Shown here one piece after another: positions 1,865-36,523 of a stretch of DNA of 38,929 nt (positions are counted from its first letter, which is position 1; each line of letters opens with the position of its first letter). The DNA lies in the NCBI GenBank assembly GCA_043783985.1, contig JAYVYV010000083.1, positions 1 through 38,929 on the forward strand, given 5' to 3'. The translations under genes and the position numbers were made by a program. The notes under the pieces are model-generated. The model saw nothing but the letters and a program-made list of their open reading frames with translations, ran no database searches and was not told the DNA's origin. Source of the DNA: Acidobacteriota bacterium. Lineage in GTDB: Bacteria; Acidobacteriota; Vicinamibacteria; Vicinamibacterales; CAVVIG01.

Positions 1865-3259
1865 ATGAAAACGTTCGTTTCCGCAATCCTGGTCCTTGCC
1901 GCGCTGATGGCGGCGTCCGCCCAGCCGGCCCGGCGGCGGGTGTCGTTGATCGTCGTCGGCGGTCCCGTGCTCACGCAGAACGCCGCCCACCGAATCCTGA
2001 CGCCCGGCGCCCTCGCCATCGACGGCACCGACATCATTGACATCGATACACCGGCGGCGATCGGTGCGAAGTATCGGGCGGCGGAGACGATCGATGCGCG
2101 CGATCAAATCGTCCTCCCGGGCCTCATCAACACGCACTCGCACGCGCCGATGGTGATGTACCGGGGCCTCGCCGACGACCTCGCGCTGATGGACTGGCTG
2201 CAGAAGTACATCTTCCCCGCGGAAGCCAAGACGGTGTCGCCTGAACTGGTCCGCGTCGGCACGCGCCTGGCCGCCGTCGAGATGATCGAGTCGGGGACGA
2301 CGGCTTACGTCGACATGTATTACTTCGAGGAGGAGATCGCGAAAGCGACCGTCGAAGCCGGGCTGCGCGGCGTCCTCGGCGAGACGATCATCCAGTTCCC
2401 GGTCGCCGATGCGAAGACGCCAGCCGACGCGCTCGCGCGCGCGGAACGGTTCATCAAGGAATACAAGGACAACAACCTGGTCGTGCCGGCGGTCGCGCCG
2501 CACGCGCTCTACACGAACGACAAGACGACGCTCGCCGCGTCCGCGGCGCTGGCGCGCAAGTACGGCGTGCCGATCCTGATCCATTTCGCGGAGACCGAGG
2601 ATGAAGTCAAGATCGCGCGCGAGCGGTATCAGATGACGCCGACCGCCGCGCTCGAATCGATCGGCGTGCTGGGCCCGACCACGATCGGCGCGCACGGCGT
2701 GTGGGTGAGCGACGCGGACATCGCCATCCTCCAGCGCACCGGCACCGGCGTCGCGCACAATCCGGAAAGCAACATGAAGCTGGCGAGCGGCGCCGCCCCG
2801 GTGACGAAGTACCTGGCCGCCGGCGTCAAGCTCGGACTCGGCACCGACGGCGCGGCGAGCAACAACGATCTCGACATGTTCGAGGCGATGCGTCAGGCGT
2901 CGTTCCTCGCCAAACACTCCACGCACGATCCGACCGCCGTCCCGGCGCAAACCGCGCTCGACATGGCGACGATGGGCGGCGCGCGCGTGATCGGCATGGA
3001 TAAGCTGATCGGGTCGCTGGAGACGGGCAAGCGTGCCGACCTGATCACCGTTTCGACGCGCTCGGCACGCCAGACGCCGATGTACGACCCGGTCTCCCAC
3101 CTGGTGTACGTGACCCGTGGTGAGGATGTGCGGAGCACGATCGTGAACGGCAAGGTGTTGATGAGCGAACGGAAACTGAGAACCCTCGATCGCGAGCAGG
3201 TGATTGCCGACGCTAACCGCCTGGCTGCGCGAGTCAGAGAGGCGGTTACACCGCGATGA
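1865..3259 (+). CDS. metal-dependent amidohydrolase (MtaD / chlorohydrolase-like deaminase family) with N-terminal signal peptide
   Basis: LPGLINTHSHAPM metal-binding HxH motif, HF.ET, and GTDGAASNN near the C-terminus. ATG 1865 gives MKTFVSAILVLAALMAASAQ, a signal-peptide-like N-terminus. Confidence 0.8.
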   Translation: MKTFVSAILVLAALMAASAQPARRRVSLIVVGGPVLTQNAAHRILTPGALAIDGTDIIDIDTPAAIGAKYRAAETIDARDQIVLPGLINTHSHAPMVMYRGLADDLALMDWLQKYIFPAEAKTVSPELVRVGTRLAAVEMIESGTTAYVDMYYFEEEIAKATVEAGLRGVLGETIIQFPVADAKTPADALARAERFIKEYKDNNLVVPAVAPHALYTNDKTTLAASAALARKYGVPILIHFAETEDEVKIARERYQMTPTAALESIGVLGPTTIGAHGVWVSDADIAILQRTGTGVAHNPESNMKLASGAAPVTKYLAAGVKLGLGTDGAASNNDLDMFEAMRQASFLAKHSTHDPTAVPAQTALDMATMGGARVIGMDKLIGSLETGKRADLITVSTRSARQTPMYDPVSHLVYVTRGEDVRSTIVNGKVLMSERKLRTLDREQVIADANRLAARVREAVTPR

Positions 3260-3369
3260 GATTTCAGATTTCAGAGTTCAGAATTCAGATTGATTTCAGA
3301 TTGATTTCAGATTGGATTCTGATTGGATTCTGATTGGATTTCTGAAATCTGAACTCTGAAATCTGAAAT
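3260..3369. repeat. 7-bp tandem repeat, family B (TTTCAGA / TCTGAAA) forming a composite palindrome
   Basis: The whole 111-bp convergent spacer is repeat. A 22-nt perfect inverted repeat is present: 3261-3282 atttcagatttcagagttcaga versus 3348-3369 tctgaactctgaaatctgaaat. Confidence 0.95.
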
Positions 3370-3915: not shown

Positions 3916-4560
3916 ATGAAACGGTTCGAGATCATCACGGAGACCGACGCGCGCGTGCTGGAGCGCGGCGAGATGGTGATGCTCGCGAAAGGCGGACACG
4001 TCACGCCGCTCGCGCAGGACACGCTGCGCGAGCGCCGGGTGACGCTGGTCCACGAGGGGCGCGCGACCGACGATGCGGCCGCCCTGGTGCCGCGCGCCGA
4101 CATCCGCACGGTCGCGATCGCCAGCGATCACACCGGCGTCAAGTTGCGGAAGAGCCTGGTGGAGTTCCTGCGCGGCCGTGGGCTGACGGTCCAGGATCTG
4201 GGCACCGACGGACCGGACCCGGTGGACTATCCTGATGTCGCGGCCTCGGTCGCCGACGCCGTGATCCGGCGCGAGGCGGATGGCGGGATCGTCATCGACG
4301 GCGCCGGAATCGGATCGGCGATCGCGGCGAACAAGATCAACGGGATCCGCGCGGTGATGGCGGCGACCGAGACGATCGCGCGTTACGCCCGCGAGCACAA
4401 CGGCTGCAACGTGCTCACGCTGGGCGCGACGCTCGTGAGCGCCGAGGAAGCCACCGCGATCGTGACGATGTGGCTGACGACGCCGATGCGGGAGCCGAGA
4501 TACATCGCGCGGCTTGCGAAGATCCGCGCGCTCGAAGACAGGACCGGCCCGAAGGGCTAG
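3916..4560 (+). CDS. rpiB: RpiB/LacA/LacB-family sugar-phosphate isomerase with ~60-aa N-terminal extra domain
   Basis: Core VAIASDHTGVKLR..GGIVIDGAGIGSAIAANK..RAV..ARYAREHNGCNVLTLG matches ribose-5-phosphate isomerase B. Residues 1-60 (..GGHVTPLAQDTLRERRVTLV..) are additional. Confidence 0.85.
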   Translation: MKRFEIITETDARVLERGEMVMLAKGGHVTPLAQDTLRERRVTLVHEGRATDDAAALVPRADIRTVAIASDHTGVKLRKSLVEFLRGRGLTVQDLGTDGPDPVDYPDVAASVADAVIRREADGGIVIDGAGIGSAIAANKINGIRAVMAATETIARYAREHNGCNVLTLGATLVSAEEATAIVTMWLTTPMREPRYIARLAKIRALEDRTGPKG

Positions 4561-4568
4561 GGCCAAAT

Positions 4569-4645
4569 AGGGCTGAGGGCTGAGGGCTTAGGGCTTAGGC
4601 TGTGGGCTGAGGGCTTCTGAAACGCTGAGAGCCGATCGCTGAGAG
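4569..4645. repeat. 7-bp tandem repeat, family C (AGGGCTG / AGGGCTT), G-tract rich on + strand
   Basis: agggctg agggctg agggctt agggctt aggctgt gggctg agggctt, then ctgagag variants. Fills the rpiB-deoC spacer. Confidence 0.95.
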
Positions 4646-5524
4646 TTGATGACCAGAGACGACCTGCAAAAGCTGATCGACACCATCGTCAGCGAGCTGA
4701 TGCCGGCCCTGACGCGGCAGCCGCAGGGGCGGTGCGCGTGCCATTCGGTGCTCGACGACTGCTGTCCGGATCGCCTGCGCGGCGTCATCGATGCGGGCGC
4801 CTGCCGCGTGGGGATGTACGCCGCTGGCGGCGCGCCGACGGGCGTGGCGTCGATGATCGATCACACGCTGCTCAAGCCGGACGCCACGCGGGCCGACATC
4901 GAAGCGCTGTGCCGCGAGGCGGCGCAGTTCAAATTCGCTACGGTCTGCGTGAACCCGACGTGGGTCGCGACCGCAGCCAGGCTGCTTGCAGGAAGCGGCG
5001 TCGGCGTCTGCTCGGTGGTCGGCTTCCCGCTGGGCGCCACCACCCCTGACGTCAAGGGCTACGAGACGCGCCGGGCCATCTTCGACGGTGCGCGCGAGAT
5101 CGACATGGTGATCAACGTCGGCGCGCTCAAGTCGGGGGACCTCCGCCTCGTCGAAACCGACATCGAAGCGGTGACGACGCCGTGCCGCGAGGCGGGCGCA
5201 CTCAGCAAGGTGATCATCGAGGCGGCGCTGCTGACCGACGAGGAGAAGATCACCGCGTGCACGCTGGCGAAGGCGGCGGGCGCCGATTACGTGAAGACGT
5301 CGACCGGCTTCGCATCCGGCGGCGCCACCGCCGCGGACGTCGCGCTCATGCGGCGCGTGGTCGGCGCCCAGATGGGCGTGAAGGCGGCCGGCGGGGTGCG
5401 CGACCTCGAAGGGATGCAGGCGATGATCGCGGCCGGCGCGACGCGCGTGGGCGCGAGCGCCGGGGTCAAAATCGTGCAGCAGGCGCGCGGCGAGAACACG
5501 TCAGCCGCGCCCAGCGGCTACTGA
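4646..5524 (+). CDS. deoC: deoxyribose-phosphate aldolase with ~65-aa N-terminal extension
   Basis: [11 protein letters not shown].., VCVNP, and the Schiff-base lysine context [10 protein letters not shown]. The N-terminal extension holds an amphipathic helix and a Cys/His-rich stretch. Confidence 0.9.
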
Positions 5525-6647: not shown

Positions 6648-9112
6648 CGGTGCGTACCGTATTGAGGATTGCGGACTGCGGAGTGCGGATTCGAGCCCTC
6701 AGCCCTCGGCCCTGAGCCCTTCGCCTTTCCGTCCCCGCCCTCCCACGGGGGGGGGACATCGAGAGGCTCGGGGTACGGGACATCCGGAAAGCGCGTCGGG
6801 CCGTAGCGCGGCGTTTTGCCCGCGGCCTTGGCATCGAGCGCCTTCCGGATCTTCTCCGGCGTGATGGGCACCTCGTCGATGCGCACGCCGATCGCGTCGT
6901 AGACGGCGTTGGCCACCGCGGGCATGACCGGCAGCAGCGGACCCTGGCCGACTTCCTTGGCGCCGAAGGGACCACGCGGATCGGGGTTCTCCACCAACTC
7001 CGTCACCACCTCCGGCATGTCGAGCGTGGTCGGGCTCTTGTATTCGAGCATCGACGGAAACTTGTGCACGAGCGCATGAGACATCTTCGGCGGGAGTCGG
7101 CGGAACGTCTGCTCCTCCATCAGCGCCTCGCCGATCGCCATGTAGACGCTGCCCTCGACCTGCCCGCGCACCAGCGTCGGGTTCAGCGAGCGGCCGATGT
7201 CGTGCGCGATCCAGACGCGCGGCACGTGGATCCAGCCGGACGAGGGATCGACCTCGACTTCGACGATCGCGGCGGAGTAGGAGTAGGTGGGGGAGGGACC
7301 GACGCCGCCACCCTTGAATCTCGCGGCGGAGCGCGGCGGCGTGTACGAGCCGGTCGAGCCGATGGTGCCGAACATCGCCTCCGCGAGTTGCACCGCCTCG
7401 GCGAAGGTGACGCCGGCGTCGGCGTTCTCGGTGTCGAAGACGCGGCGGTCGGCGAAGACGAGACGGTCCGCGGCGACCGAGAGCTTCTTCGACACTGCGT
7501 CGGCGAGCAGATCGCGCGCCCGCTCGGCCGCCTGGATCGCGGCGTTGCCCATCATCAGCGTGACGCGGCTGGAGTAGGAGCCGAGATCCACCGGCGTGAG
7601 ATCGGTGTCGCCTGTGACCGGACGGATGTCGATCGGCTCGATGCCGAGCACTTCCGCCACGCACGCGACCAGCACGTCGTCGGATCCCTGGCCGATCTCG
7701 GTGGCGCCGCAGAAGACGGTGACGCCGCCGCTGCGATCGAGCTTGAGCTGCACGCCCGAGTGCGGCATGTCGTTGTAGTAGATCGGCAAGCCGGCGCCGG
7801 AGAGGTACGACGAGCAGGCGATCCCGACGCCGCGGCCGGGCGGCAGCCGGCCGAAGGTGTTCGTCCAGTCGGCGGCCTTCGTCACGCGGCGGACGCACTC
7901 GGCGAGACCGATGGTGCCGACGCGCAGGTAGTTCGCCGTCAGCGTGTCGGGCTTCTCGACGATGCGGAGGCGCAGTTCCGCCGGATTGATCGCAAGGGAC
8001 TCGGCGATCTTGTCGAGCTGGATCTCCTGGCCGAAGCGGCTCTGCGGCGTGCCGTGGCCGCGCTTGGGGCCGCACGGCGGCTTGTTGGTGAAGACGCGGC
8101 AGCCCTCGAAGTGGTAGGTCGGGATGTGGTACGTCACGGTCTGCAGCGCGCCGGTGTAGAACGTGCTGGCCACCCCGTACGACCCGTAGGCGCCGCCGTC
8201 GAGCAGCGTCTTCACGTGCATGCCGGTGATCGTGCCGTCGTTCATCACGCCGGTCTTGAACGTCATCAGCACCGGATGGCGTCCCCGGTGGCAGTAGAAC
8301 ACCTCCTCCCGTGTGAGGCAGATCTTCACGGGCCGATCGAGCATCAACGCCGCCTTTGCCACGACCATTTCATGGTTGAACGGATCGCTCTTGCCGCCGA
8401 AGCCGCCGCCGTTGGGCGTGGCGATCACGCGGATGTGCGCCGCCGGCATCGCCAGCGCCTTGGCGAGCGCGCGATGGACGTAGTGCGGGGTCTGCGTGCT
8501 CGACCACAGCACCAGCTTGCCGTCGGGATCTTTCGCCGCGACCGCGGCATGCTGCTCGATCGGCAGGTGGGTGTTGCCTTGGTAGAAGAAGGTGTCCTCG
8601 AACACGCGGTCGGCCTTGGCGAACGCCCGCTCGACGTCGCCGAAGCGCAACGACACGGCCTTGTGGATGTTGCCGGAGTCGCCGTAGTCGTGGATGCGCG
8701 GCTCGGGGAAGGCGAGGCTCTCCTCGGGTTCGGCGAACGTGCGCAGCGGCTCGTACTCGACGTCGATGAAGTCGAGCGCATCGACCGCCGTGATCTCGTC
8801 GCGCGCGACGACCGCCGCCACCGGGTCGCCGATGAAGCGCACGCGGTCCACCGCGAGGGCGTGCTCGTCCTGGCTCACCGGGAGGATGCCGTACGAGATC
8901 GGGAAATCCGCGCCGGTCAGCACGAGGTGGACGCCAGGGCGCGCGCGCGCGCGCGACACGTCGATCCGCACGATGCGCGCGTGCGGCAGCGTCGAGCGCA
9001 GCAGCTTGCAGTGCACCGTTCGCGGCAGCATCAGATCGTCCGCGAAGCGCGTTTGTCCCGTCACCTTCGCTCGTCCGTCCACGCGGCGCCGCGGCGTTCC
9101 TATGATCCTCAT
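6644..9112 (-). CDS. molybdopterin-binding large subunit of xanthine-dehydrogenase-family enzyme (HcrA-like)
   Basis: MRIIGTPRRRVDGRAKVTGQTRFADD.., NGGGFGGKSDPF, GATEIGQG. Start at ATG 9112 overlaps the small-subunit stop (ATGA). The ORF-track extension to 9352 is out-of-frame overlap with the 2Fe-2S gene. Confidence 0.9.
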   Translation of the reverse strand: MRIIGTPRRRVDGRAKVTGQTRFADDLMLPRTVHCKLLRSTLPHARIVRIDVSRARARPGVHLVLTGADFPISYGILPVSQDEHALAVDRVRFIGDPVAAVVARDEITAVDALDFIDVEYEPLRTFAEPEESLAFPEPRIHDYGDSGNIHKAVSLRFGDVERAFAKADRVFEDTFFYQGNTHLPIEQHAAVAAKDPDGKLVLWSSTQTPHYVHRALAKALAMPAAHIRVIATPNGGGFGGKSDPFNHEMVVAKAALMLDRPVKICLTREEVFYCHRGRHPVLMTFKTGVMNDGTITGMHVKTLLDGGAYGSYGVASTFYTGALQTVTYHIPTYHFEGCRVFTNKPPCGPKRGHGTPQSRFGQEIQLDKIAESLAINPAELRLRIVEKPDTLTANYLRVGTIGLAECVRRVTKAADWTNTFGRLPPGRGVGIACSSYLSGAGLPIYYNDMPHSGVQLKLDRSGGVTVFCGATEIGQGSDDVLVACVAEVLGIEPIDIRPVTGDTDLTPVDLGSYSSRVTLMMGNAAIQAAERARDLLADAVSKKLSVAADRLVFADRRVFDTENADAGVTFAEAVQLAEAMFGTIGSTGSYTPPRSAARFKGGGVGPSPTYSYSAAIVEVEVDPSSGWIHVPRVWIAHDIGRSLNPTLVRGQVEGSVYMAIGEALMEEQTFRRLPPKMSHALVHKFPSMLEYKSPTTLDMPEVVTELVENPDPRGPFGAKEVGQGPLLPVMPAVANAVYDAIGVRIDEVPITPEKIRKALDAKAAGKTPRYGPTRFPDVPYPEPLDVPPPWEGGDGKAKGSGPRAEGSNPHSAVRNPQYGTHR
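6661..6725. repeat. 7-bp tandem repeats, family A followed by family C (C-rich on + strand)
   Basis: attgagg attgcgg actgcgg agtgcgg attcgag ccctcag ccctcgg ccctgag cccttcg. Lies inside the last ~25 codons of the large-subunit ORF, just upstream of the FAD-subunit start. Confidence 0.95.
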
Positions 9113-10452: not shown

Positions 10453-11637
10453 ATGCGGTGGTTGAAACTCGTCGCGGCGGCGGCGACGGTCGCGCCGATC
10501 GTGCTCGCGCTGCGGCTGTTGTCGGTCAGCTTCGCCGGCATCGCCGCGCCGCTGCTGCTCCTCGACGTCGTCGTCGTCGCGCGGCTGTGGGGAACGGGGC
10601 CCGCACTGGTCGCGGCGGCCTCGGGCGCCGGCGCGTATTCCTATTTCTTCCTCCCGCCGGCCGGATTCAAGATCGAGGACGCCGAGGACTGGATCGCCTT
10701 TGTCACCTTCATCGTCACGGCGGTCATCGCCGGCGAACTGGCGTCGCGCGCCGAACGACGCGCGGCGGAGGCACAGGCGGGACGCCAGGAGATCGAGCGG
10801 CTGTATCAGGAACTGCGGGGCGCGTTCGAACGCGCGAGCGAGGCGGAGGCGGCGCGGCGCAACGAGCAGCTGAAGGCGGCGCTGCTCGACGCCCTCACCC
10901 ACAACCTGCGGACGCCGCTGACCTCGATCAAGGCGGCGGTCACGGCGCTCATCTGCAGCGACGTCCGGAACCCGGTCTCGGAGTTGCCGGCCGAAGGGCG
11001 GCGGGAGCTCCTGCAAGTCATCGACGAGGAGTCGGATCGCCTCAACCGGTTCATCGGAGGACTCGCGACGCCGGAGCGCACCGAGCCGGGGCAGCCGATC
11101 CACCTGCGCGCGGTCGCCATCGACTCGATCGTCGCGTCCGGGCTGCACCGCGCCGAAACCGTCACGCGGGATCATCGTGTCGTCGTCTCGATGGACGAGG
11201 AGATCCCGGCCGTGTCGGCCGACGCGGCGTCCATCACCGAGGTGGTCTACATCCTGCTCGACAACGCGAGCAAGTACGCGCCGCCCGGCACCACGATTAC
11301 CGTGAGCTCCGCGCGTGAAGATGGGCGAACCGTCCGGATCACCGTGTCGGATGAGGGACCCGGAATTCCCGCGGCGTTGCGCGAGCGGGTGTTCGAGAAG
11401 TTCTTCCGCGTGCCGGTGCGCGAATCGCACGACCCGAACCGGGGCGGCGTCGGACTGGGCCTGCCGATCGCGCGGCGCCTGGTGGAGACGCAAGGCGGAC
11501 GCATCTGGATCGCCGAGCCCCTGTTCGGGCGGGGGACGACGGTCGCGATGACGTTGCCCGCGGCCGCGGACGCCGACGTGGAACGCCTGAAGTCTGAAGT
11601 CAGAAGTCTGAAATCTGCGGAGCAAAGGACGGCGTGA
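10453..11637 (+). CDS. sensor histidine kinase, KdpD C-terminal type (DUF4118-like membrane domain + HisKA + HATPase_c)
   Basis: Hydrophobic N-terminus. H-box LLDALTHNLRTPLTSIK, N-box LLDNASKYAP, G-boxes DEGPGIP and GGVGLGLPIA. ATG 10453 chosen because the upstream ORF-track part is Arg/Gly-rich noise. Confidence 0.85.
   Translation: MRWLKLVAAAATVAPIVLALRLLSVSFAGIAAPLLLLDVVVVARLWGTGPALVAAASGAGAYSYFFLPPAGFKIEDAEDWIAFVTFIVTAVIAGELASRAERRAAEAQAGRQEIERLYQELRGAFERASEAEAARRNEQLKAALLDALTHNLRTPLTSIKAAVTALICSDVRNPVSELPAEGRRELLQVIDEESDRLNRFIGGLATPERTEPGQPIHLRAVAIDSIVASGLHRAETVTRDHRVVVSMDEEIPAVSADAASITEVVYILLDNASKYAPPGTTITVSSAREDGRTVRITVSDEGPGIPAALRERVFEKFFRVPVRESHDPNRGGVGLGLPIARRLVETQGGRIWIAEPLFGRGTTVAMTLPAAADADVERLKSEVRSLKSAEQRTA
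11587..11617. repeat. 7-bp tandem repeat, family B (CTGAAGT/CTGAAAT orientation)
   Basis: ctgaagt ctgaagt cagaagt ctgaaat ctg, inside the last codons of the kinase ORF. Confidence 0.85.
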
Positions 11638-12340: not shown

Positions 12341-12375
12341 TCCGAATCTGAAGTCTGAAGTCCGAAATCTGAAAT
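12341..12375. repeat. 7-bp tandem repeat, family B
   Basis: tccgaat ctgaagt ctgaagt ccgaaat ctgaaat, immediately left of the island boundary. Confidence 0.9.
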
Positions 12376-14907: not shown

Positions 14908-14938
14908 CGTCAAATCTCCTGAAAGTCGTTCGTGGAAG

Positions 14939-15500
14939 TTATCTGGATGAGTGCGCACCGGCGACGAGCACCGGAGCCGCGCGATACAGGTCGGGCGACA
15001 GCCGCTTGAGATCGTCGATCTTCGGGAGATCGTTGATGGCGATGTAGCGGTACGTCGGGTTCGGCGTCAGGAAATCCTGGTGATAGCCCTCGGCTGGATA
15101 GAACGGACGGTCGGGTTCGATTTTGGTCACGATCGGTTTCTTGAATGCGTGCGTTTGATCGAGCTGGGCGATGTAAGCCTTTTGCGACCTCCGCCTGCTC
15201 GCCGCTCGTGGGGAAGATCGCCGAGCGATACTGCGTGCCGATGTCCGGCCCCTGGCGATTCAGCTCCGTCGGATCGTGGACGACCGAGAAAAAGATCTGT
15301 AGCAGCCGTCCGTAGCTGATCTGGCGGGGATCGTAAGTGACCTGCACGCATGCCCCGTCCTGCCGGTGCTGACCAAGTCGTACGCGGTCTTCTTCTCGCC
15401 GCCGGCATCGCCGGAGACTGCGTTGCTCACGCCTTTGACGTGCTGGAACACGCCCTCTAGCCAAGAGTGAACGCGTAGACATGGACGCCGGGGCCGGGGA
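14939..15500 (-). pseudogene. msrA: peptide methionine sulfoxide reductase MsrA, disrupted
   Basis: MsrA homology is split over three frames: [24 protein letters not shown], then [45 protein letters not shown], then [36 protein letters not shown]. The catalytic GCFWG region is missing or interrupted by TAG. Confidence 0.7.
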
Positions 15501-15774
15501 AGTGGCGCGCTTCGCGAGGTCGCCGCTGGCCGAATTGGTTCGCAAGGAGCTTGAACCGTAATGAACGTCGTCAGAGTACACGGCGACGTGTACGACGCAT
15601 ACGAAGCACCGTCGCCAGTGTCGTCTCCCGCGTGCAAACGAATCATCGGGCAAATCGTCCAAGGCACGAGTCGTAACGGTTACCGTGCGTGTGGCCTCGC
15701 CTTAGCACTGCTTCGAGCGGAGCGCGGTCTTGGCTCGGCGAGGAGGCTAGACGGTTCGCAAGCGTGAACATCGG

Positions 15775-15960: not shown

Positions 15961-16079
15961 CGGATCATCGCCTTTTGTTAGGCGACGGCGCGGTCGCGTA
16001 ATCTCCATCACCTCAACGACTTATGCGAGACGCACGGCCGAAGCTCGAACTGGCCGCCGCTTTGCGATGCCTTATCACG

Positions 16080-17969
16080 ATGTCAACTGTGCGATCGAGG
16101 CCGAAAGCGACGTGGGGACGGACCGGTCCGGGCGCCTGCGCCACTCCTTTTGTGCTCGCCACGCTCCTCATGGTCGGAGCGCGCCCAGCGAGCGCGCAAG
16201 ACTCCCCGCATCACGCGAAAATGGACGCGGAGGTGGAAGCGGCGGTCCATGCGGCGAGCCCGTCGACGCGCGTCATCGTCCAATTCGCCGACGCGACCGC
16301 GCGGGAAAACGGCCGCCGCGTTGCCGGCGCCTACGGCGCGGCCGTGGCGCGCGACCTGAATTCCCTCACTGCGCTCAGTATCAGCGGCCCGGCGAGTGCC
16401 ATCGATGCGATCGCGCTCGACCTGGGCGTTTCGCATGTGTCGCTCGACGCCGCCACCAGCGCGTCCGACCTCGCGTTCCAGCAAGTGGGGGCGCAGGCAG
16501 ACAGCGGCGGCAATTACGAGGCGCGTCAGCGGTACAACAAGAACGGGCGCGGCCTCACCGTCGCCGTGATTGATTCGGGCATCGCGCCGCATAGCGATCT
16601 GGGAAGCTCGCGCCTCCTGGCTTTTGTCGACTTCGTCAACGGGCGCACGCTGCCGTACGACGATTACGGCCACGGCACGCACGTCGCCGGCATCATCGCC
16701 GGCAGCGGCGCGGCCTCCAGCACGCAGCTCTCCCCCTTTGCAGGCGGGGCGCCGGGGACGAATCTCATCGCGTTGAAAGTGCTGGACGGGCGTGGGACGG
16801 GCCGGACGAGCGACGTGATTGCCGCGTTCGAATGGGTGCTCGCCAACGCCGCGGCCTACAACATCAAGGTCGTCAATCTGTCGCTGGGCCATCCGATTTT
16901 CGAACCCGCCGCCCTGGACCCGCTCGTGAAAGTGGTCGAGCAGGCCTCGCGGCGTGGCATCGTGGTGGTGGTGGCCGCCGGCAATCGTGGTCTGCATCCC
17001 ACGACGGCCGCGACCGTCTACGGGGGGATTGGGTCGCCGGCCAATGCGCCCTCGGCCATCACCGTCGGCGCGGTCAAAACGCAGGGCACGCCGCAGCGCA
17101 GTGACGACGCGGTCGCCTCCTACAGTTCGCGCGGTCCCACGCGGTTCGACCTGCTCGCCAAGCCCGACCTCGTGGCGGCGGGCGACCGGATCGTGTCGCT
17201 GTCGGCGCCGGGCAGCTATCTGTTTCAAACCTATCCGGCGCTGCAGGTCTCCCCGGCGGGTGAGACCCCGGCGGCGTATTTGCGGCTGAGCGGCACCAGC
17301 ATGGCCGCGCCGGCGGTCGCGGGGACGGCGGCGTTACTGCTGGAAGCGAATCCACGGCTGTCCAGCCACACGATCAAAGCGGTTCTCCAGTTCACCGCGC
17401 AGCCACTGCCTAACACCAACGCGCTGACGCAAGGCGCCGGATACCTCAATGCGTTGGGCGCGCTGCGCCTGGCCCAGTTGATCAACCCGGCCGCGCCGCA
17501 CGACACCTATTGGCTCCGCGACTCGAACGCGCCGGTGCCGAGCGACGTCCTCTTCAACGAGACGGTGCTCTGGAGCAAGACGCTCGTCTGGGGCGACAGA
17601 CTGCTGGTCGGCGATTCGGCGTACGTCCACCTGCGCGCCTTCGACGATGTCACGGCGTGGGGCGCACCGGTGGCGCTCCCGACGGCTCCTCTCAGGGCGG
17701 CGATGGCCTATAGCCTGCTCGACAACATCGTGTGGGGCACGGTGTTGACCGCCACGAACATCGTGTGGGGTACCAATATCGTCTGGGGCACCAATATCGT
17801 CTGGGGCACCAATATCGTCTGGGGGACCGCGCTCGCGCCCGGCTTCTCCACCAGCACGAACATCGTGTGGGGCACCAATATCGTTTGGGGCACGGGTCTG
17901 CTTGACAACATCGTTTGGGGCAGCAACATCGTCTGGGGCACGCTGGCGATTCTGATCGGGGGACTGTAA
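16080..17969 (+). CDS. secreted S8 (subtilisin-family) serine peptidase with C-terminal NIVWGT hexapeptide repeat array
   Basis: Catalytic triad contexts VAVIDSGI (Asp), HGTHVAGIIAG (His), SGTSMAAPAVAG (Ser). Signal peptide after ATG 16080; ATG 16023 is an alternative start. I9-like propeptide VIVQF... Confidence 0.9.
   Translation: MSTVRSRPKATWGRTGPGACATPFVLATLLMVGARPASAQDSPHHAKMDAEVEAAVHAASPSTRVIVQFADATARENGRRVAGAYGAAVARDLNSLTALSISGPASAIDAIALDLGVSHVSLDAATSASDLAFQQVGAQADSGGNYEARQRYNKNGRGLTVAVIDSGIAPHSDLGSSRLLAFVDFVNGRTLPYDDYGHGTHVAGIIAGSGAASSTQLSPFAGGAPGTNLIALKVLDGRGTGRTSDVIAAFEWVLANAAAYNIKVVNLSLGHPIFEPAALDPLVKVVEQASRRGIVVVVAAGNRGLHPTTAATVYGGIGSPANAPSAITVGAVKTQGTPQRSDDAVASYSSRGPTRFDLLAKPDLVAAGDRIVSLSAPGSYLFQTYPALQVSPAGETPAAYLRLSGTSMAAPAVAGTAALLLEANPRLSSHTIKAVLQFTAQPLPNTNALTQGAGYLNALGALRLAQLINPAAPHDTYWLRDSNAPVPSDVLFNETVLWSKTLVWGDRLLVGDSAYVHLRAFDDVTAWGAPVALPTAPLRAAMAYSLLDNIVWGTVLTATNIVWGTNIVWGTNIVWGTNIVWGTALAPGFSTSTNIVWGTNIVWGTGLLDNIVWGSNIVWGTLAILIGGL
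17721..17943 (+). repeat. 18-bp in-frame tandem repeat encoding (D)NIVWGT, 9 copies
   Basis: Four uninterrupted units at 17757-17828 (aacatcgtgtggggtacc, aatatcgtctggggcacc x2, aatatcgtctgggggacc). Five more copies are separated by short linkers. Differences are mostly third-codon positions. Confidence 0.95.
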
Positions 17970-18622
17970 TGGAAACGATGCTCTACCGTCCCGCGCTCGA
18001 GACGCTGGCGACGACGCAGCCGTGGGCCGAGCCGGTCGTCAGCTCGGACTGGCGCGCGGGTCTGCCGGTGCTGGCCGGGCACGGCGTAACGCTGCGCGAG
18101 CTGCGAGTCTCCGATGCGGTGTCGCTCTGCGCGCTGCTCACGACCGAGGAAGTCGCGCGCTTCATTTCGCCGCCGCCGACCACCGTGGACGGTTTCGAGC
18201 GCTTCATCCAGTGGGCGCACCGGCAGCGCGCTGCCGCCAGTTACGTCTGCTTCGCCGTGACGCGGACGGGCACCGACACGGCCATCGGGATCTTCCAGCT
18301 CCGCGCGCTGGGCGACAGCTTCTCGACCGCGGAGTGGGGTTTTGTCCTGGGCTCCCCCTACTGGGGCACGGGGGTGTTCGCGGCGGGCGCTGACTTGGTC
18401 CTGGATTTTGCGTTCGGCACGATCGGCGTGCAACGCCTCGAGGCGCGGGCCGCCGTGCGCAATGGCCGGGGGAACGGCGCGCTGCAGAAGGTGGGCGCGG
18501 TTCAGGAAGCGCGGTTGCGAAAATCCTTCCACAAGAACGACGAGTACCTCGACCAGGTCCTGTGGGCCCTCTTCCGGGACCAGTGGGAGAGCTCGCGGCC
18601 AGCGGCGGGGCTGATTCAGTAA
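17969..18622 (+). CDS. GNAT-family N-acetyltransferase (RimJ/RimL-like)
   Basis: LRELRVSDA.., ..IGIFQL.., WGFVLGSPYWGTGVF.., QRLEARAAVRNGRGNGALQKVGAVQEARLRKSF. ATG 17969 overlaps the peptidase stop (TAATG). Confidence 0.85.
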   Translation: METMLYRPALETLATTQPWAEPVVSSDWRAGLPVLAGHGVTLRELRVSDAVSLCALLTTEEVARFISPPPTTVDGFERFIQWAHRQRAAASYVCFAVTRTGTDTAIGIFQLRALGDSFSTAEWGFVLGSPYWGTGVFAAGADLVLDFAFGTIGVQRLEARAAVRNGRGNGALQKVGAVQEARLRKSFHKNDEYLDQVLWALFRDQWESSRPAAGLIQ

Positions 18623-19367: not shown

Positions 19368-20497
19368 ATGAGCGTCACACTACGACCGTACCGAAGCGGA
19401 GGCTGGGAGGTGGACATCACCTTGCGGCTTCCCGACGGGTCGCAACATCGAGAACGGAAACGGGCGTCACATTTCTCGAAGTCGGCGGCTCAGCGATGGG
19501 CGCAGGATCGTGAGCGGTACTTGCTGCAGCACGGCCCGCCCGCACCAAAGATGGAGGTGCCCACACTTGAAACATTCGCGCCGAGATTCGTCGACGGCCA
19601 CGCACGGGCGAACCGTCACAAACCGAGTGACATTGCAGCGACGGAATCGATCCTGAAGTGGCATCTGATTCCAACGCTCGGTGCTCGACGCCTCGACGCG
19701 ATCACGAACGAGCAGGTGCAGCGTATGAAGCTCGCTTTGGCGCATCGCGCGCCGAAGACGGTCAACAACGTGCTGACGGTATTGAGCACGCTGTTGAAGA
19801 AGGCCGTGGAATGGGGCGAGCTCGAGCGGTTGCCGTGCGCGAACAAGTGCTGCCCAATCCGAAAAAGACGATGGGGTTCCACAACTTCGATCAGTACGAG
19901 CGGCTGTTGACGGTGGCCAGCAAGCGCGGTGTGGAGACGTACCTGATGGTGTTGTTGGGCGGTGACGCGGGGCTGCGGCTCGGGGAAATCGTCGCGCTGG
20001 AGTGGTGCGACGTCGATCTGCCGGCCCGGCGGCTCACCGTGCAGCGATCCGATTGGCTGGGACACGTGACCGTACCGAAGGGCGGGCGGTTGCGCCAGCT
20101 GCCGATGACGCAGCGGCTCACGGCAGCGATGAAGGCGGCGCGCCATCTCCGATCGGCTCGCCTGTTGAGCCTGCCGGATGGATCCGCGCTCACGCGCGAT
20201 CGCGTGATCAAGGCCGTCCGCGGTGCACAGCGTGTGGCGGGGCTGGCCGAGCAGGGCGTGCACATCCTTCGGCACACGTTCTGTTCGCACCTGGCGATGC
20301 GTGGCGCGCCGGCGCGGGCCATTCAGGAGCTCGCCGGGCACGCCGATCTGTCAACGACGCAACGCTACATGCACCTGAGCCCGGCAGCGACCGAGGACGC
20401 GATTCGGCTGTTGGACGGACGCCCGATTGAGGCTGGATCCGCGAAAAATTCTGGAGACATTCTGGACACGCGATCAGCGGAAGCGGGAAGTAATTGA
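19368..20497 (+). pseudogene. tyrosine recombinase / phage-type integrase with one frameshift near 19840
   Basis: The N-terminal arm-binding and SAM-like part (MSVTLRPYRSGGWEVDITL.. to ..AVEWGELERLPC) is in the frame of 19368. The catalytic domain (GLRLGEIVAL, HILRHTFCSHL, LAGHADLSTTQRYMHL) is in the frame of 19658-20497. GGAGGAG Shine-Dalgarno lies upstream of ATG 19368. Confidence 0.8.
20449..20471 (+). promoter_or_regulatory. candidate integrase arm-type site (partner of 12530-12552)
   Basis: ttctggagacattctggacacgc, within the last codons of the integrase gene and 41 bp from the tRNA-proximal att core. Confidence 0.4.
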
Positions 20498-20512: not shown

Positions 20513-20586
20513 TGGAGCGGGCTACGGGGATCGAACCCGTGTCCGAGGCTTGGGAAGCCTCTGTACTACCATTGTACTAAGCCCGC
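20513..20586 (-). tRNA. tRNA-Gly (anticodon CCC), CCA encoded
   Basis: Acceptor GCGGGCT/AGCCCGC, anticodon stem GAGGC/GCCTC with loop TTCCCAA, T arm ACGGG-TTCGATC-CCCGT, 3' TCCA. 74 nt. Confidence 0.95.
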
Positions 20587-20609
20587 GCAGGAGGTCGCCC
20601 GGCCCGCTA

Positions 20610-20703
20610 GGCTGAAGCCTTCGCGCTACGCTCGGCTGAAGCCTTCGCGCTACGGTCGGCTGAAGGCTTCGCGCTACGGTCGGCTAAAGCCTTCGCGCTG
20701 GGG
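20610..20703. repeat. 24-bp tandem repeat, about 4 copies (GGCTGAAGCCTTCGCGCTACGGTC)
   Basis: Units at 20610-20633, 20634-20657, 20658-20681 and partial 20682-20703. Each contains the near-palindrome GGCTGAAGCC. A 21-bp identical solo copy lies at 9125-9145. Confidence 0.95.
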
Positions 20704-20724: not shown

Positions 20725-22086
20725 TCACGCGCGGATGAGCGTCAGCACCTCGTCGCGTTTTTCGGCCATCTTCTCCGGCGTCGTCGCCTCGAGGTTCAGC
20801 CGGAGCAGCGGCTCGGTGTTCGACGCCCGGACGTTGAAGTGCCAGTCGGGGTACTCCACCGAGATGCCGTCCAGCTCGTAGACGTTCGGCGCGTCGGCAT
20901 ACTTCGCGGCGAGCGCTACCAGCTTCGGCGGCACCTCCGACATGTTCTTGAGCTTGGTGTTGATCTCGCCGGAGATGAAATACTTCTGCGCCAGCGGCTT
21001 CAGGAGCTCGTGCAGGCTCTGGCCCTTCTTCGACATCAGCTCCAGAATCAGCAGCGCCGGGATGAAGCCGTTGTCGGCGAAGAAGTTGTCGCGGAAGTAA
21101 TAGTGGCCGGTGACCTCGCCGCCGAAGACGGCGTTGGTCTCACGCATCCGCGTCTTGAAGAACGCGTGGCCGACGCGGTTCATCAGCGACGTCCCGCCCA
21201 GCCGCGCCACGGTGTCCTTCACCGCATAGCTGGCGCGCAGATCGTAAATCACCGTCGCGCCAGGGTGCTTCAGGAGGAATGCCTCGGCCAGCAGCGCGGT
21301 GACGAAGTCGCCGGAGACGAACTCGCCGGCGCCGTCGATGAAGAAGCAGCGATCCGCGTCGCCGTCCCACGCGATGCCGACGTCGGCTTTCTCGGCGACG
21401 ACGCGTGCGACGATGTCCTTGCGGTTGTCCTCGATGAGGGGGTTCGCCTCGTGATTCGGGAACCGCCCGTCGATGTCGAAGCAGAGCCGCGTCGTCTTGC
21501 AGGGCAGCCGCTCGAACAGCCGGGGTGCGACCAGGCCGCCCATGCCGCTGCCGGCGTCGAGGACGACGTTGAACGGCTTGACGACCGGCGCGTCGATGAA
21601 CGACATCACGTGCTCCACGTACGGCTCGAGCACGTTCTTCGTGGTGACCACGCCGCGGCGCGCCGCGGCCGGGGGAATGGCGCCGTCCATGATCATCTGG
21701 CGGATCTCGGCCAACCCTTCGTCGCCGCTGAGCGGCCACGCGCCCTTGCGGACCATCTTCATGCCGTTGTACTGCTTCGGGTTGTGCGAGGCGGTGATCT
21801 GGACGCCGCCGTCGTGCGCGTCCTTCGCCACCGCGAAGTAGAGCATGTCGGTCGCCATCATGCCGTAGTCGACGACATCGCAGCCCTGCGACGTGGCGCC
21901 GTCCACGAAGGCGGCCGCGAGGGCCGGCGATGACAGTCGCATGTCGCGGCTGACCGCGATCCGTGTCGCCTGCAGGTAGACGACAAACGCGGCGCCGATG
22001 GCCCGCGCGGCATCCTCGTCGATCTCGCCCGGATACACGCCGCGGACGTCATACGCCTTGAAGATGTCGGGGTTCAGGGGAGGCAT
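20725..22086 (-). CDS. phosphomannomutase / phosphoglucomutase
   Basis: Active-site serine loop QITASHNP, metal loop AWDGDADRCFFID, sugar loop GGEVTGH. Confidence 0.9.
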   Translation of the reverse strand: MPPLNPDIFKAYDVRGVYPGEIDEDAARAIGAAFVVYLQATRIAVSRDMRLSSPALAAAFVDGATSQGCDVVDYGMMATDMLYFAVAKDAHDGGVQITASHNPKQYNGMKMVRKGAWPLSGDEGLAEIRQMIMDGAIPPAAARRGVVTTKNVLEPYVEHVMSFIDAPVVKPFNVVLDAGSGMGGLVAPRLFERLPCKTTRLCFDIDGRFPNHEANPLIEDNRKDIVARVVAEKADVGIAWDGDADRCFFIDGAGEFVSGDFVTALLAEAFLLKHPGATVIYDLRASYAVKDTVARLGGTSLMNRVGHAFFKTRMRETNAVFGGEVTGHYYFRDNFFADNGFIPALLILELMSKKGQSLHELLKPLAQKYFISGEINTKLKNMSEVPPKLVALAAKYADAPNVYELDGISVEYPDWHFNVRASNTEPLLRLNLEATTPEKMAEKRDEVLTLIRA

Positions 22087-22156
22087 AGGGTTTAGGGCTT
22101 AGGGCTCAGGGTTAAGGGCTCAGGGCTCAGGGCTCAGGGCTCAGGGCTAAGGGATT
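22087..22156. repeat. 7-bp tandem repeat, family C, exactly 10 units (AGGGCTC-type)
   Basis: agggttt agggctt agggctc agggtta agggctc x4 agggcta agggatt. Starts at the base after the PMM start codon. Confidence 0.95.
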
Positions 22157-22168
22157 ATGGTTGGTCGC

Positions 22169-23233
22169 TCAGAGCCGGCTGTAATCGGTGACCACGGATT
22201 TGTCGCCGAGGACGACGCCGTCCTCGACGAGCGCGTTGCGGCCGATGTGGCAGTGGCGGCCGAGGATCGAACGGCGGACCACCGCGTCCTGGCTGATGCG
22301 GCTGTTGGCCCAGACGATCGCGTTGTCCAGAACCGCATGCTCCTCGATGTGGCACTGGCGGCCGACGACGCTGTAGGGGCCGATGTGGGCGCCGGCCTTC
22401 ACGACGACCCCTTCGTCGATGAAGCAGGGGCCCTGGACGATCGCGCCTGCTTCGACGCGCGCGTCCGGCGAGATCCAGGCGGCGCCCGGATGCGCGGCGA
22501 ACGGCATCGCGCGATGCCCGGTGTAGCGGCCGTCCATGATGTCGCGGTGAACCTGCATGTACTTCTCAGGCGTCCCGATATCGATCCAGTAGCCGCGGTA
22601 GACGTAGGCGACGAACGTCTCCGCACGCTCGATCAGCGAGGGGAAGAAGCTGCGCTCGATCGACCAGGGCGTGTCTCTGGGGATACGGTCGAAGGTGTCT
22701 GGCTCGAGGACGTAGATGCCGGCGTTGATCGTGTCGCACGTGATCTCGTCGGCGTTCGGTTTCTCCAGGAAGCGCGTGACGTTTCCGCGCGCGTCGGTCT
22801 CGACGAGCCCGTACGCGGACGGGTTGTCCACCGGCGTCAGGACGATGGTCGCCTTGGCCTTGCGCTCGCGGTGCAGCGCGATCACCGCCGCGAGGTCGAG
22901 CTGCGTGAGGACGTCGCCGTTGAACACGACCACCGAATCGCGCATCGCCTCGCTCGCAAACCGGATGGCGCCACCGGTGCCCAGCGGCGCCGGCTCGACC
23001 ACGTAGCCGATGGCGAGGCCCGAGTCGCCGCCGTCGCCGAAGACCTCCTCGATGCGCCGCGGCTGGTAGTTGAGGCTGAGAATTACCTCGTCGATTTCCG
23101 GCACCTGCTTGAGCAGGTCGAGCTGGTAGTGGAGGAACGGCCGGTCGAAGATCGGGACGATCGGCTTGGGCGTGTGAACGGTGAGCGGGCGCAGGCGCGT
23201 CCCTTTGCCGCCCGCGAGCAGAATCGCCTTCAT
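22169..23233 (-). CDS. sugar-1-phosphate nucleotidyltransferase (mannose-1-phosphate guanylyltransferase-like) with C-terminal left-handed beta-helix
   Basis: MKAILLAGGKGTRLRPLT signature, ..GTGGA.., and C-terminal hexapeptide-repeat region. ATG 23233. Confidence 0.85.
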   Translation of the reverse strand: MKAILLAGGKGTRLRPLTVHTPKPIVPIFDRPFLHYQLDLLKQVPEIDEVILSLNYQPRRIEEVFGDGGDSGLAIGYVVEPAPLGTGGAIRFASEAMRDSVVVFNGDVLTQLDLAAVIALHRERKAKATIVLTPVDNPSAYGLVETDARGNVTRFLEKPNADEITCDTINAGIYVLEPDTFDRIPRDTPWSIERSFFPSLIERAETFVAYVYRGYWIDIGTPEKYMQVHRDIMDGRYTGHRAMPFAAHPGAAWISPDARVEAGAIVQGPCFIDEGVVVKAGAHIGPYSVVGRQCHIEEHAVLDNAIVWANSRISQDAVVRRSILGRHCHIGRNALVEDGVVLGDKSVVTDYSRL

Positions 23234-23271
23234 GACAACCACCGATGTTATCATGCTGAAGCCGGCCGCCG

Positions 23272-33202: not shown

Positions 33203-36445
<3,243 letters not shown>

Positions 36446-36460
<15 letters not shown>

Positions 36461-36517
36461 GAATGCAGCATGCAGCATTCGCGCGAAGTCCAAATTCCAA
36501 ATTCTGAATGCCGAATT
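36446..36517. repeat. family-B-related palindromic spacer between convergent genes (probable terminator region)
   Basis: ggaattcaga ... gaatgcagcatgcagcattc ... tctgaatgccgaattcc. Outer arms are ggaattc/gaattcc, with an inner imperfect palindrome. Confidence 0.6.
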
Positions 36518-36523
36518 CCTCCT

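Follow-up and report, generated by a model that had tools for sequence, protein, structure and literature searches.

The NIVWGT array of a secreted S8 peptidase is the local copy of a conserved C-terminal repeat module of Vicinamibacteria

We sought to identify the nature of a tandem hexapeptide array that ends a protease gene in a 38,929-nt stretch of DNA from an Acidobacteriota bacterium of the order Vicinamibacterales (contig JAYVYV010000083.1); this whole stretch is referred to as the window. The gene (16023..17969, + strand; open reading frame (ORF) and Pfam match) encodes a 648-amino acid (aa) secreted S8 (subtilisin-family) peptidase with an N-terminal propeptide, and its C-terminus reads ...AYSLLD-NIVWGT-VLTAT-(NIVWGT)x4-ALAPGFSTST-(NIVWGT)x2-GLLD-NIVWGS-NIVWGT-LAILIGGL before the stop codon. 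Is such an array a peculiarity of one gene, a by-product of DNA slippage, or a structure with a role outside the cell? Comparison with homologues showed that it is the local copy of a conserved, exported repeat module that ends hundreds of secreted S8 peptidases of Vicinamibacteria.

The array comprises nine in-frame 18-bp units, eight encoding NIVWGT and one NIVWGS, which together with the preceding Asp codon and three spacers (VLTAT, ALAPGFSTST and GLLD) occupy 17721..17942 of the + strand, as delimited by motif positions, Tandem Repeats Finder (TRF) and a shuffle test. The units are located on this strand at 17724-41, 17757-74, 17775-92, 17793-810, 17811-28, 17859-76, 17877-94, 17907-24 (NIVWGS) and 17925-42, and the nine N-I-V-W-G cores of the protein follow one another at spacings of 11, 6, 6, 6, 16, 6, 10 and 6 residues. 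The degenerate 17-mer AAYATCGTNTGGGGNAS occurred nine times in the window, every time inside the array, and was absent from 100 dinucleotide-preserving shuffles. TRF recovered the 18-bp unit as a period at 17760-17828 (3.8 copies, 94% matches) and again at 17854-17893 and 17906-17940. The initial annotation of this DNA had given the same peptide, which matches the translation exactly with 9/9 units in frame; its interval, 17721-17943, begins correctly at the Asp codon before the first unit and runs one base past the last. It had also pointed to synonymous third-position differences between units and to degenerate copies upstream, and both were recovered. The units differ by AAC/AAT, GTG/GTC/GTT, GGC/GGT/GGG and ACC/ACG, the one exception being a Thr to Ser change (ACC to AGC), and the copies TVLWSK and TLVWGD lie upstream of the array at aa 514-525, within a degenerate leading segment, SDVLFNETVLWSKTLVWGDRLLVGDSAYVHL (aa 507-537; 17541..17633, + strand), that was delimited by motif positions and AlphaFold2 strands. 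The array is followed by a non-repeat end, LAILIGGL with the TAA stop (17943..17969, + strand), which is the window version of a terminal motif of the family.

The protein that carries the array is predicted to be an active, exported subtilase. Its true start is likely the ATG at 16080 (Met20), and the N-terminus read from this residue shows a basic n-region, a hydrophobic core and an A-S-A motif; it is probably a Sec signal peptide (MSTVRSRPKATWGRTGPGACATPFVLATLLMVGARPASA followed by QD; 16080..16196, + strand). Signal peptides, here and on the small repeat proteins described below, were judged by eye from translations. The Peptidase_S8 catalytic domain (PF00082, aa 175-471; 16545..17435, + strand) scored 169.5 bits against a gathering threshold of 21.8, and the canonical motifs are present: D184 (DSG), H217 (HGTH), the oxyanion N321 (AGN) and S426 (GTSM). 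With triad, oxyanion Asn and domain score in agreement, the earlier subtilase call is supported. AlphaFold2 modelled propeptide and catalytic domain with a predicted local confidence (pLDDT) >90, and a Foldseek search with the full model returned nothing but subtilisins, the top matches being pro-subtilisins and the best 3afg (ProN-Tk-SP, E=7e-36). Tk-SP from Thermococcus kodakarensis (PDB 3AFG) is the best match in sequence and fold for propeptide plus catalytic domain; its sequence match to homologue P0115 reached 161.6 bits.

We next turn to the family. Of the 8000 candidates scored in a full-length homologue search, 7562 reached E<=1e-20, and the best of them was 53% identical. C-terminal NIVWG-type arrays were present in all complete proteins among the top 120 homologues (41-53% identity), in the forms [D]NIVWG[Q/T/M/F/N], NIVWAT and NIVWST. 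The best match, P0077, has the array layout of the window protein: LLD-NIVWG, a 5-residue spacer, an adjacent run, a longer spacer, two to three copies and a short non-repeat end. This end follows a pattern, hydrophobic-[VLI]-L-T-[GE]-[GE]-x-[RQ], that is found in 77/112 full-length homologues (P0077-P0196) and is too short for a membrane anchor. A scan of GTDB with one genome per species yielded at least 580 relatives. The top 79 loci came almost all from metagenome-assembled genomes (MAGs) of Vicinamibacterales, Vicinamibacteria or Acidobacteriota, and the few that bear other taxon labels look like mis-binned contigs; 82/86 S8 ORFs examined at the GTDB loci held at least five units. When the repeat region alone was searched with phmmer against 1.84 billion cluster representatives, 332 proteins matched at E<=0.001 and 72 at E<=1e-10. 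Ten long matches from this search without obvious S8 motifs were assigned by Pfam to S8 in seven cases and to GNAT only in two, with nothing found in one.

Two observations from this survey concern data quality. Public metagenome proteins P0010, P0017, P0052, P0068, P0262 and P0305 change frame within the array, so that NIVWGT becomes RTSSGAP or QHRLGH, which indicates that public metagenomes frequently contain assembly or gene-calling errors in repeat arrays of this family. Apparent fusions of the repeat to a GNAT domain (P0251, P0262 and P0305) were rejected as frameshifted assemblies, since they show the repeat as it reads in the +1/+2 frames (RTSSGAP, QHRLGH) along with scrambled stretches of GNAT.

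Across 3391 units from 316 proteins the motif frequencies were D 0.69, N 0.86, I 0.82, V 0.87 and G 0.92; Trp was demanded by the search pattern and was given no frequency. The family consensus is D-N-I-V-W-G-x, in 5-21 copies per protein. The cores are spaced 6 to 16 residues apart, mostly 8-13, and spacing varies within single proteins (221 cases of 6 residues, 79 of 7, 334 of 8, 430 of 9, 385 of 10, 359 of 11, 210 of 12 and 308 of 13). Strict hexads are a minority variant, found besides the window protein in P0213, P0203 and P0228. The initial annotation had taken a strict period of 6 as the basis for its argument about the fold. Since this period is peculiar to the window protein and a minority of relatives and spacing in the family runs from 6 to 16, arguments built on it do not carry over to the family. 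The spacers are acidic in the family, and C-x4-C loops make up 66% of those with 13 residues and 69% of those with 14 in homologues (for example QCxGxxCD in P0078-P0131 and DCGGxDCD in P0305/P0012), the window protein having none. Their recurrence suggests small disulfide-closed loops, which fits a disulfide-stabilised exported structure.

Does the array persist because its peptide is selected, or because its DNA slips? The first of these had been proposed, to the exclusion of recent slippage. Selection on the peptide is borne out by the retention of N-I-V-W-G in the complete top-120 homologues and across the units measured, but the exclusion of slippage was too strong. The DNA of units 3 and 4 is identical and that of unit 5 is one base away from both, so that part of the array is a recent duplication. 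Alleles that are >90% identical differ by exactly one unit, as in 20 vs 19 units (a difference of 7 residues) and 14 vs 13 units (10 residues). The residue after Gly is shared by two units with a probability of 0.63 within a protein vs 0.18 overall, and this uniformity within proteins with variation between them indicates concerted evolution of the array. The one-unit allele differences, together with a peptide kept at 41-53% identity, mean that array turnover by gain and loss of whole units and purifying selection on the unit sequence act jointly.

The same data bear on the proposal that the tail is a functionless low-complexity product of replication slippage, or an assembly artefact. The near-identical units 3-5, the unit-number polymorphism between close alleles, the frequency of frameshifted arrays in metagenome assemblies and a low AlphaFold2 confidence over the array (see below) would all suit it. 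Set against them are a motif that is retained at 41-53% identity and in at least 580 GTDB relatives, unit differences that are synonymous, a frame that stays intact into the conserved terminal motif, and an array layout orthologous to that of P0077. Because of the motif conservation across homologues this proposal is effectively refuted, and we regard it as hardly credible.

If the unit is selected as a peptide, which known repeat does it resemble? Pfam and NCBIfam searches of the whole protein and of the tail alone returned S8 only, WKTW_rpt falling far under threshold; NCBIfam had no model for the repeat either in homologues or in small secreted proteins. A search for the motif strings gave unrelated strings only, no paper of the library covered having the motif, and one combining Vicinamibacter with subtilase gave nothing relevant. 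The hexapeptide of left-handed beta-helices was considered through PF00132 (Hexapep), which had no match at E<=10 in the window protein or its tail, while in a positive control, window ORF 22169-23251, the same library detected Hexapep with 44.4 bits. The misfit to that consensus claimed earlier is therefore borne out. The picture is different for PF21300 (LbR_Ice_bind, 'Grass antifreeze beta roll', threshold 30 bits), which is passed by homologues P0115 (55.9 bits), P0084 (50.8), P0133 (49.1) and P0081 (44.0); P0077 (20.9 bits) and P0134 (14.4 bits) stay below it. Heptad runs occur in homologues such as P0115 and P0133, and the sole match of the P0115 array in the PDB was 3ULT, the Lolium perenne ice-binding protein (LpIBP; E=2e-6), aligned so that N, V and G stay in register. 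The PF21300 and 3ULT matches of heptad-type homologues span ~95-110 residues in register. Pure heptad runs, of which there were 6 distinct ones, proved too few for a PDB search profile that would add to PF21300. The inability of the initial annotation to assign the array to a named domain is thus borne out for the window protein itself, but at the level of the family PF21300 is a relative by way of the heptad-spaced homologues.

The nine N-I-V-W-G cores of the window array conform to the N-x-V-x-G (or N-x-V-x-x-G) core of the grass protein, and in LpAFP it is the X positions of NXVXG that face the solvent (PMC5744647). Transferred to N-I-V-W-G, this register would turn Asn and Val towards the core and Ile and Trp towards the surface. 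The reading that we favour, and to which we give an even chance, is that the array is a lineage-wide exported D-N-I-V-W-G-x module whose strand-turn units stack into an elongated beta structure with a role in binding or assembly. The repeat, its conservation across the family, the export features, the unit turnover and the gene context are established by the data; the strand-turn architecture, the beta-roll topology and the role are inferred. Each unit would form one short beta-strand (N-I-V-W) and a turn (G-x...D), and adjacent units would pile up to give an elongated beta-sheet or a solenoid-type rod, as a continuation of the degenerate copies packed beside the catalytic domain. In the closest register, N-x-V-x-G of the grass beta-roll, Asn and Val would point inward and Ile and the near-invariant Trp outward, the latter two forming continuous hydrophobic and aromatic stripes. 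The rod itself would be non-catalytic, and may retain the protease at a surface, be it the cell envelope, a matrix or an insoluble substrate, or mediate its self-association. Secreted versions without a protease may use the same Ile/Trp surface. Copy number shifts by gain and loss of whole units while selection keeps the unit sequence.

Several results weigh against this reading. PF21300 had no match at E<=10 in the window protein or its tail, 3ULT had none in the window tail, and pairwise BLASTP of that tail with LpIBP was weak (E=0.009), with one gap per unit. Cores that lie 6-16 residues apart within single proteins are uncommon in a regular solenoid, two hexads would make a very tight coil of 12 residues, and a monomeric beta-roll that displays Ile and Trp on both of its faces would have a strong tendency to aggregate. 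Neither experiment nor gene context points to a ligand, and the acetyltransferase encoded directly downstream (see below) is unexplained by a simple anchor model. Finally, AlphaFold2 gave the array a pLDDT of 27-35 in the window protein (125-sequence alignment) and of 23-36 in the heptad homologue P0115 (50-sequence subfamily alignment chosen for the tail). Since pLDDT stayed <50 in both runs, the fold of the array is unproven.

The low confidence has to be read together with what surrounds it. In the same model the degenerate leading copies (aa 507-529) form four 4-residue strands, 6-7 residues apart, with a pLDDT of 93-94 (model residues 488-491, 494-497, 501-504 and 507-510, the model being offset by 19 from ORF numbering). 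The mean hydropathy of the array, 0.59, lies above the fold/disorder boundary of 0.42 and exceeds that of the catalytic domain, and Trp, Asn and Gly of the repeat are nearly invariant in the family. Hydropathy, C-x4-C spacers, confident leading strands and near-invariant Trp, Asn and Gly together oppose the reading of the array as a disordered linker. The initial annotation had named predicted disorder without conservation in homologues as a refuting outcome; the low-confidence structure prediction agrees with the first half of it, and the very strong conservation contradicts the second. The low monomer confidence in combination with these features fits a need for a partner, an oligomer or bound ions; the low confidence over the array also fits a failure of AlphaFold2 on repeats that align poorly.

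The leading strands and the variable spacers also bear on a second architecture, in which N-I-V-W hairpins joined by loops of 2-9 residues build an antiparallel beta-meander and the PF21300 match is a coincidence of periodicity. Hairpin turns of two residues are typically made by pairs such as Gly-Thr, Gly-Ser and Gly-Asn; the C-x4-C spacers resemble disulfide-closed hairpin loops, the freely varying loop length would be better tolerated by a meander than by a solenoid, and just 2-3 residues separate the confident leading strands. We nonetheless consider a meander unlikely, as conserved Asn and Gly with alternating hydrophobic residues are a hallmark of solenoid rungs and the PF21300 and 3ULT matches hold their register over ~95-110 residues.

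The failure of the monomer runs on a very hydrophobic and highly conserved region would be expected if the same strand-turn units folded only as an obligate oligomer, that is as an intertwined or face-to-face beta-helix or a fibre in which Ile and Trp are buried between chains, comparable to the phage gp5/VgrG needle or to functional amyloid subunits, and in which protease-bearing and protease-free subunits could co-assemble. DUF2345, which we take to mark the VgrG beta-helix region, appeared in NIVWAT/NIVWST-type homologues at 25.3 and 21.0 bits, both under its threshold of 30.7, so that the same scores that favour an oligomer also speak against it. The small secreted proteins described below, with a signal peptide and 5-6 repeats, have a layout like that of curli-type subunits. 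A precedent exists in Bacillus Vpr, an S8 peptidase that forms extracellular fibrils (PDB 8jmw; PMC10657474). Against an obligate oligomer, no assembly or secretion partner genes adjoin the gene, and irregular spacing speaks against a strict intertwined helix; on balance we find it rather unlikely. A more specific form of this idea, which we likewise hold to be unlikely, is that D-N-I-V-W-G arrays are the subunits of an undescribed extracellular self-assembling beta-structure of Vicinamibacteria that folds only in the oligomer or fibre, with protease-bearing subunits of ~650 aa and protease-free ones of 122-148 aa, all from one conserved locus with a dedicated GNAT next to it, co-assembling as a protease-decorated surface layer or fibre.

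The protease-free proteins came to light in the gene context. At three loci (L001, L003 and L004, beside P0077, P0091 and P0128) the S8 gene is followed by a GNAT acetyltransferase gene with a gap of 0-3 nt, and the pair occupies the slot ruvCAB-fabH-(DUF4112-x-LigD)-[pair]-queA-x-tilS-ftsH. In four other lineages the ruv-queA slot holds a protein of 122-148 aa that combines a signal peptide and a short segment containing Cys with 5-6 DNIVWGT units (L005 6001-6438; L087 5001-5447; L006 1933-2337; L088 5001-5369). These small proteins have two Cys each and end in an aromatic residue (...LEF, ...IEF, ...YDF and ...FDW). Since the slot is held either by an S8-repeat gene or by a small repeat gene, the repeat module is the constant of the locus, and a protease in cis is not required for its presence. 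The survey of array carriers called for by the initial annotation had asked whether they are always fused to S8 domains; the small secreted repeat proteins are not. A gene at L004 3979-4314 was rejected as a further small repeat protein, being the remnant of a decayed S8 gene. This decayed S8-repeat gene, at L004 3428-4314, lies in fragments in several frames and is followed by an intact GNAT gene (4311-4943), with an intact S8-GNAT pair downstream.

The stand-alone proteins bear directly on the proposal that the tail is a C-terminal pro-region, serving as an aid to export or folding or for latency, that is cleaved and degraded after secretion. Some Gram-negative subtilases have aqualysin-type C-terminal pro-sequences, which provide a precedent, and the tail forms the extreme C-terminus of a secreted S8 enzyme that also has an N-terminal propeptide and closes with a conserved non-repeat motif. 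Secreted repeat proteins that are conserved at the same locus without a protease are difficult to reconcile with such a function, and 5-21 copies with strict conservation of surface residues exceed the needs of a disposable pro-peptide. We judge a pro-region quite improbable.

In the window the GNAT gene encodes a 217-aa protein without signal peptide (17969..18622, + strand; PF13302 Acetyltransf_3, 76.7 bits) that is RimJ/RimL/SpeG-like by PDB and NCBIfam matches, neither of which gave a specific assignment. Its ATG overlaps the S8 stop codon (TAATG at 17967-17971) and is preceded by a Shine-Dalgarno-like GGGGGA run; from this arrangement the gene is predicted to be translationally coupled to the S8 gene. 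S8-GNAT pairing was found for 46/82 S8-repeat genes of GTDB genomes, and L003 (P0091) has two tandem S8-GNAT pairs, which are co-duplicated. A correlation between having repeats and having GNAT was dropped (Fisher p=0.32); the contrast is uninformative because nearly every S8 in the set has repeats under the broader motif. PADLOC, applied to the S8-GNAT pair to look for known anti-phage defence systems, gave no specific system model but only a generic subtilase/IetS similarity over the catalytic domain, the GNAT having no match. Apart from GNAT, no assembly, secretion, receptor, transporter or other maturase genes were seen next to the gene in the window or at the L001, L003 and L004 loci.

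The partnership with GNAT is explained by none of the readings except, weakly, one in which the array is a multi-copy precursor of NIVWG-type Trp peptides, cut by the S8 domain in cis or by paralogues, with GNAT modifying the peptides or giving self-protection. Tandem identical cores are indeed joined to an S8 domain with intact catalytic motifs, the GNAT gene is translationally coupled to the S8 gene and co-duplicated with it, and small proteins composed of a signal peptide and repeats adjoin the same GNAT. A residue after Gly that is uniform within proteins and different between them would fit specificity variants. If peptides were released in this way, however, cleavage sites should be conserved, and only Asp at -1 (0.69) is kept; the spacers range from 0 to >10 residues and often contain Cys pairs, and degenerate copies sit within the confidently folded part of the protein. 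The array is exported whereas GNAT lacks a signal peptide, genes for a receptor, a transporter or another maturase were not seen nearby, and GNAT is absent for 2/4 small repeat proteins (it follows P0011 and P0033 and is missing for P0047 and P0025). A self-processed peptide, which the initial annotation had raised as the more speculative role, is not favoured, and a peptide precursor appears very improbable. The closest model would be yeast prepro-alpha-factor, whose repeats are cut by Kex2, an S8-family enzyme, along with fungal and plant multi-core precursors. These share with the window protein a tandem short Trp-containing peptide, export and a protease of the S8 family; here, in contrast, there are no dibasic or other conserved sites, the spacers are irregular and the protease resides in the same polypeptide.

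The window pair lies in a neighbourhood other than the ruv-queA slot, with a split msrA on one side and an unassigned ORF, a split integrase and tRNA-Gly on the other. The methionine sulfoxide reductase gene (PMSR, msrA; 14910-15662, - strand) has its domain split between a 250-aa ORF with a partial match and ORF 14939-15130 with the C-terminal part, and is a frameshift or pseudogene or reflects a sequencing error. The tyrosine integrase is split over overlapping ORFs at 19368-20497 (+ strand), 19368-19910 coding for the N-terminal SAM-like portion and 19658-20497 for the catalytic one, directly beside tRNA-Gly(CCC) at 20513-20586 (- strand); the split integrase is probably what is left of an integrative element close downstream of the S8-GNAT pair. 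Immediately by the tRNA-Gly gene, four copies of a 24-bp unit (CGCTCGGCTGAAGCCTTCGCGCTA) with 92% identity occupy 20605-20699. Tandem arrays of 7 bp (AGCCCTC/AGGGCTC, GATTGCG, AGATTTC/TCTGAAA and others) are unusually frequent in the window, seemingly mostly at gene boundaries (1100-1129, 1794-1851, 3259-3369, 4569-4615, 6666-6720, 11587-11617, 12345-12375, 22082-22157, 33457-33519 and 36489-36519).

Vicinamibacteria (Acidobacteria subdivision 6), of which few members are in culture, are common in soil, and their feeding is believed to depend centrally on secreted peptidases. The DNIVWG module ends at least 580 S8 peptidases of this class in GTDB species genomes, often on several paralogues per genome, and occurs also in stand-alone secreted proteins. 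It is unnamed, undescribed and without a dedicated hidden Markov model (HMM), although its kind is known: a short-unit beta repeat extension of a secreted protease, with a motif like that of NxVxG beta-rolls. Knowing its fold and ligand would reveal how such enzymes are placed or put together outside the cell, and the conserved, translationally coupled GNAT sets a concrete problem for experiment. Should the module turn out to be merely a conventional anchoring tail, then the result would be a useful annotation and no surprise; nothing so far indicates an unusual mechanism.

Among known systems, Tk-SP is the closest for the propeptide and catalytic domain. It carries a C-terminal domain after the catalytic domain, a globular beta-jelly roll, and so is likewise an S8 enzyme with a non-catalytic domain C-terminal to the catalytic one. 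Identity is 34-38%, and the globular domain of Tk-SP contrasts with the short-unit repeat array of the window tail. Serralysin-type proteases with an RTX beta-roll (GGxGxDxUx) offer the same order of a protease followed by a C-terminal array of short Gly/Asp strand-turn units, and the acidic spacers of the present family add to the likeness. The motif differs, however, and the putative N-terminal Sec signal stands against a C-terminal type I signal there; PF00353 RTX had no match in the window protein and reached 18.6 bits in homologue P0233, under its threshold of 23. The head beta-roll of YadA/BpaC-type trimeric autotransporters, an oligomeric adhesin, is built from short N-x-V-x-x-G units, with NSVAIG-like repeats of 14 residues. 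Trp is absent from YadA-type repeats, the window protein has no autotransporter anchor, and neither Hep_Hag nor YadA_head matched the window protein or its homologues. The grass ice-binding beta-roll (3ULT/PF21300) comes closest to the repeat itself: both are secreted, repeat-only modules of short tandem N-x-V-x-G units, with a beta structure that is putative for the present one. The half-coil of the grass protein has 7-8 residues (14-15 per coil), whereas the window runs at a period of 6, and its exposed Thr, Ser and Val form a flat, rather hydrophilic surface where the present module has Ile (0.82) and a near-invariant Trp. The window module is in addition irregularly spaced and fused to a protease, and nothing points to ice binding. 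If the favoured reading holds, the class of NxVxG beta-rolls would gain a relative that exposes Trp on its surface.

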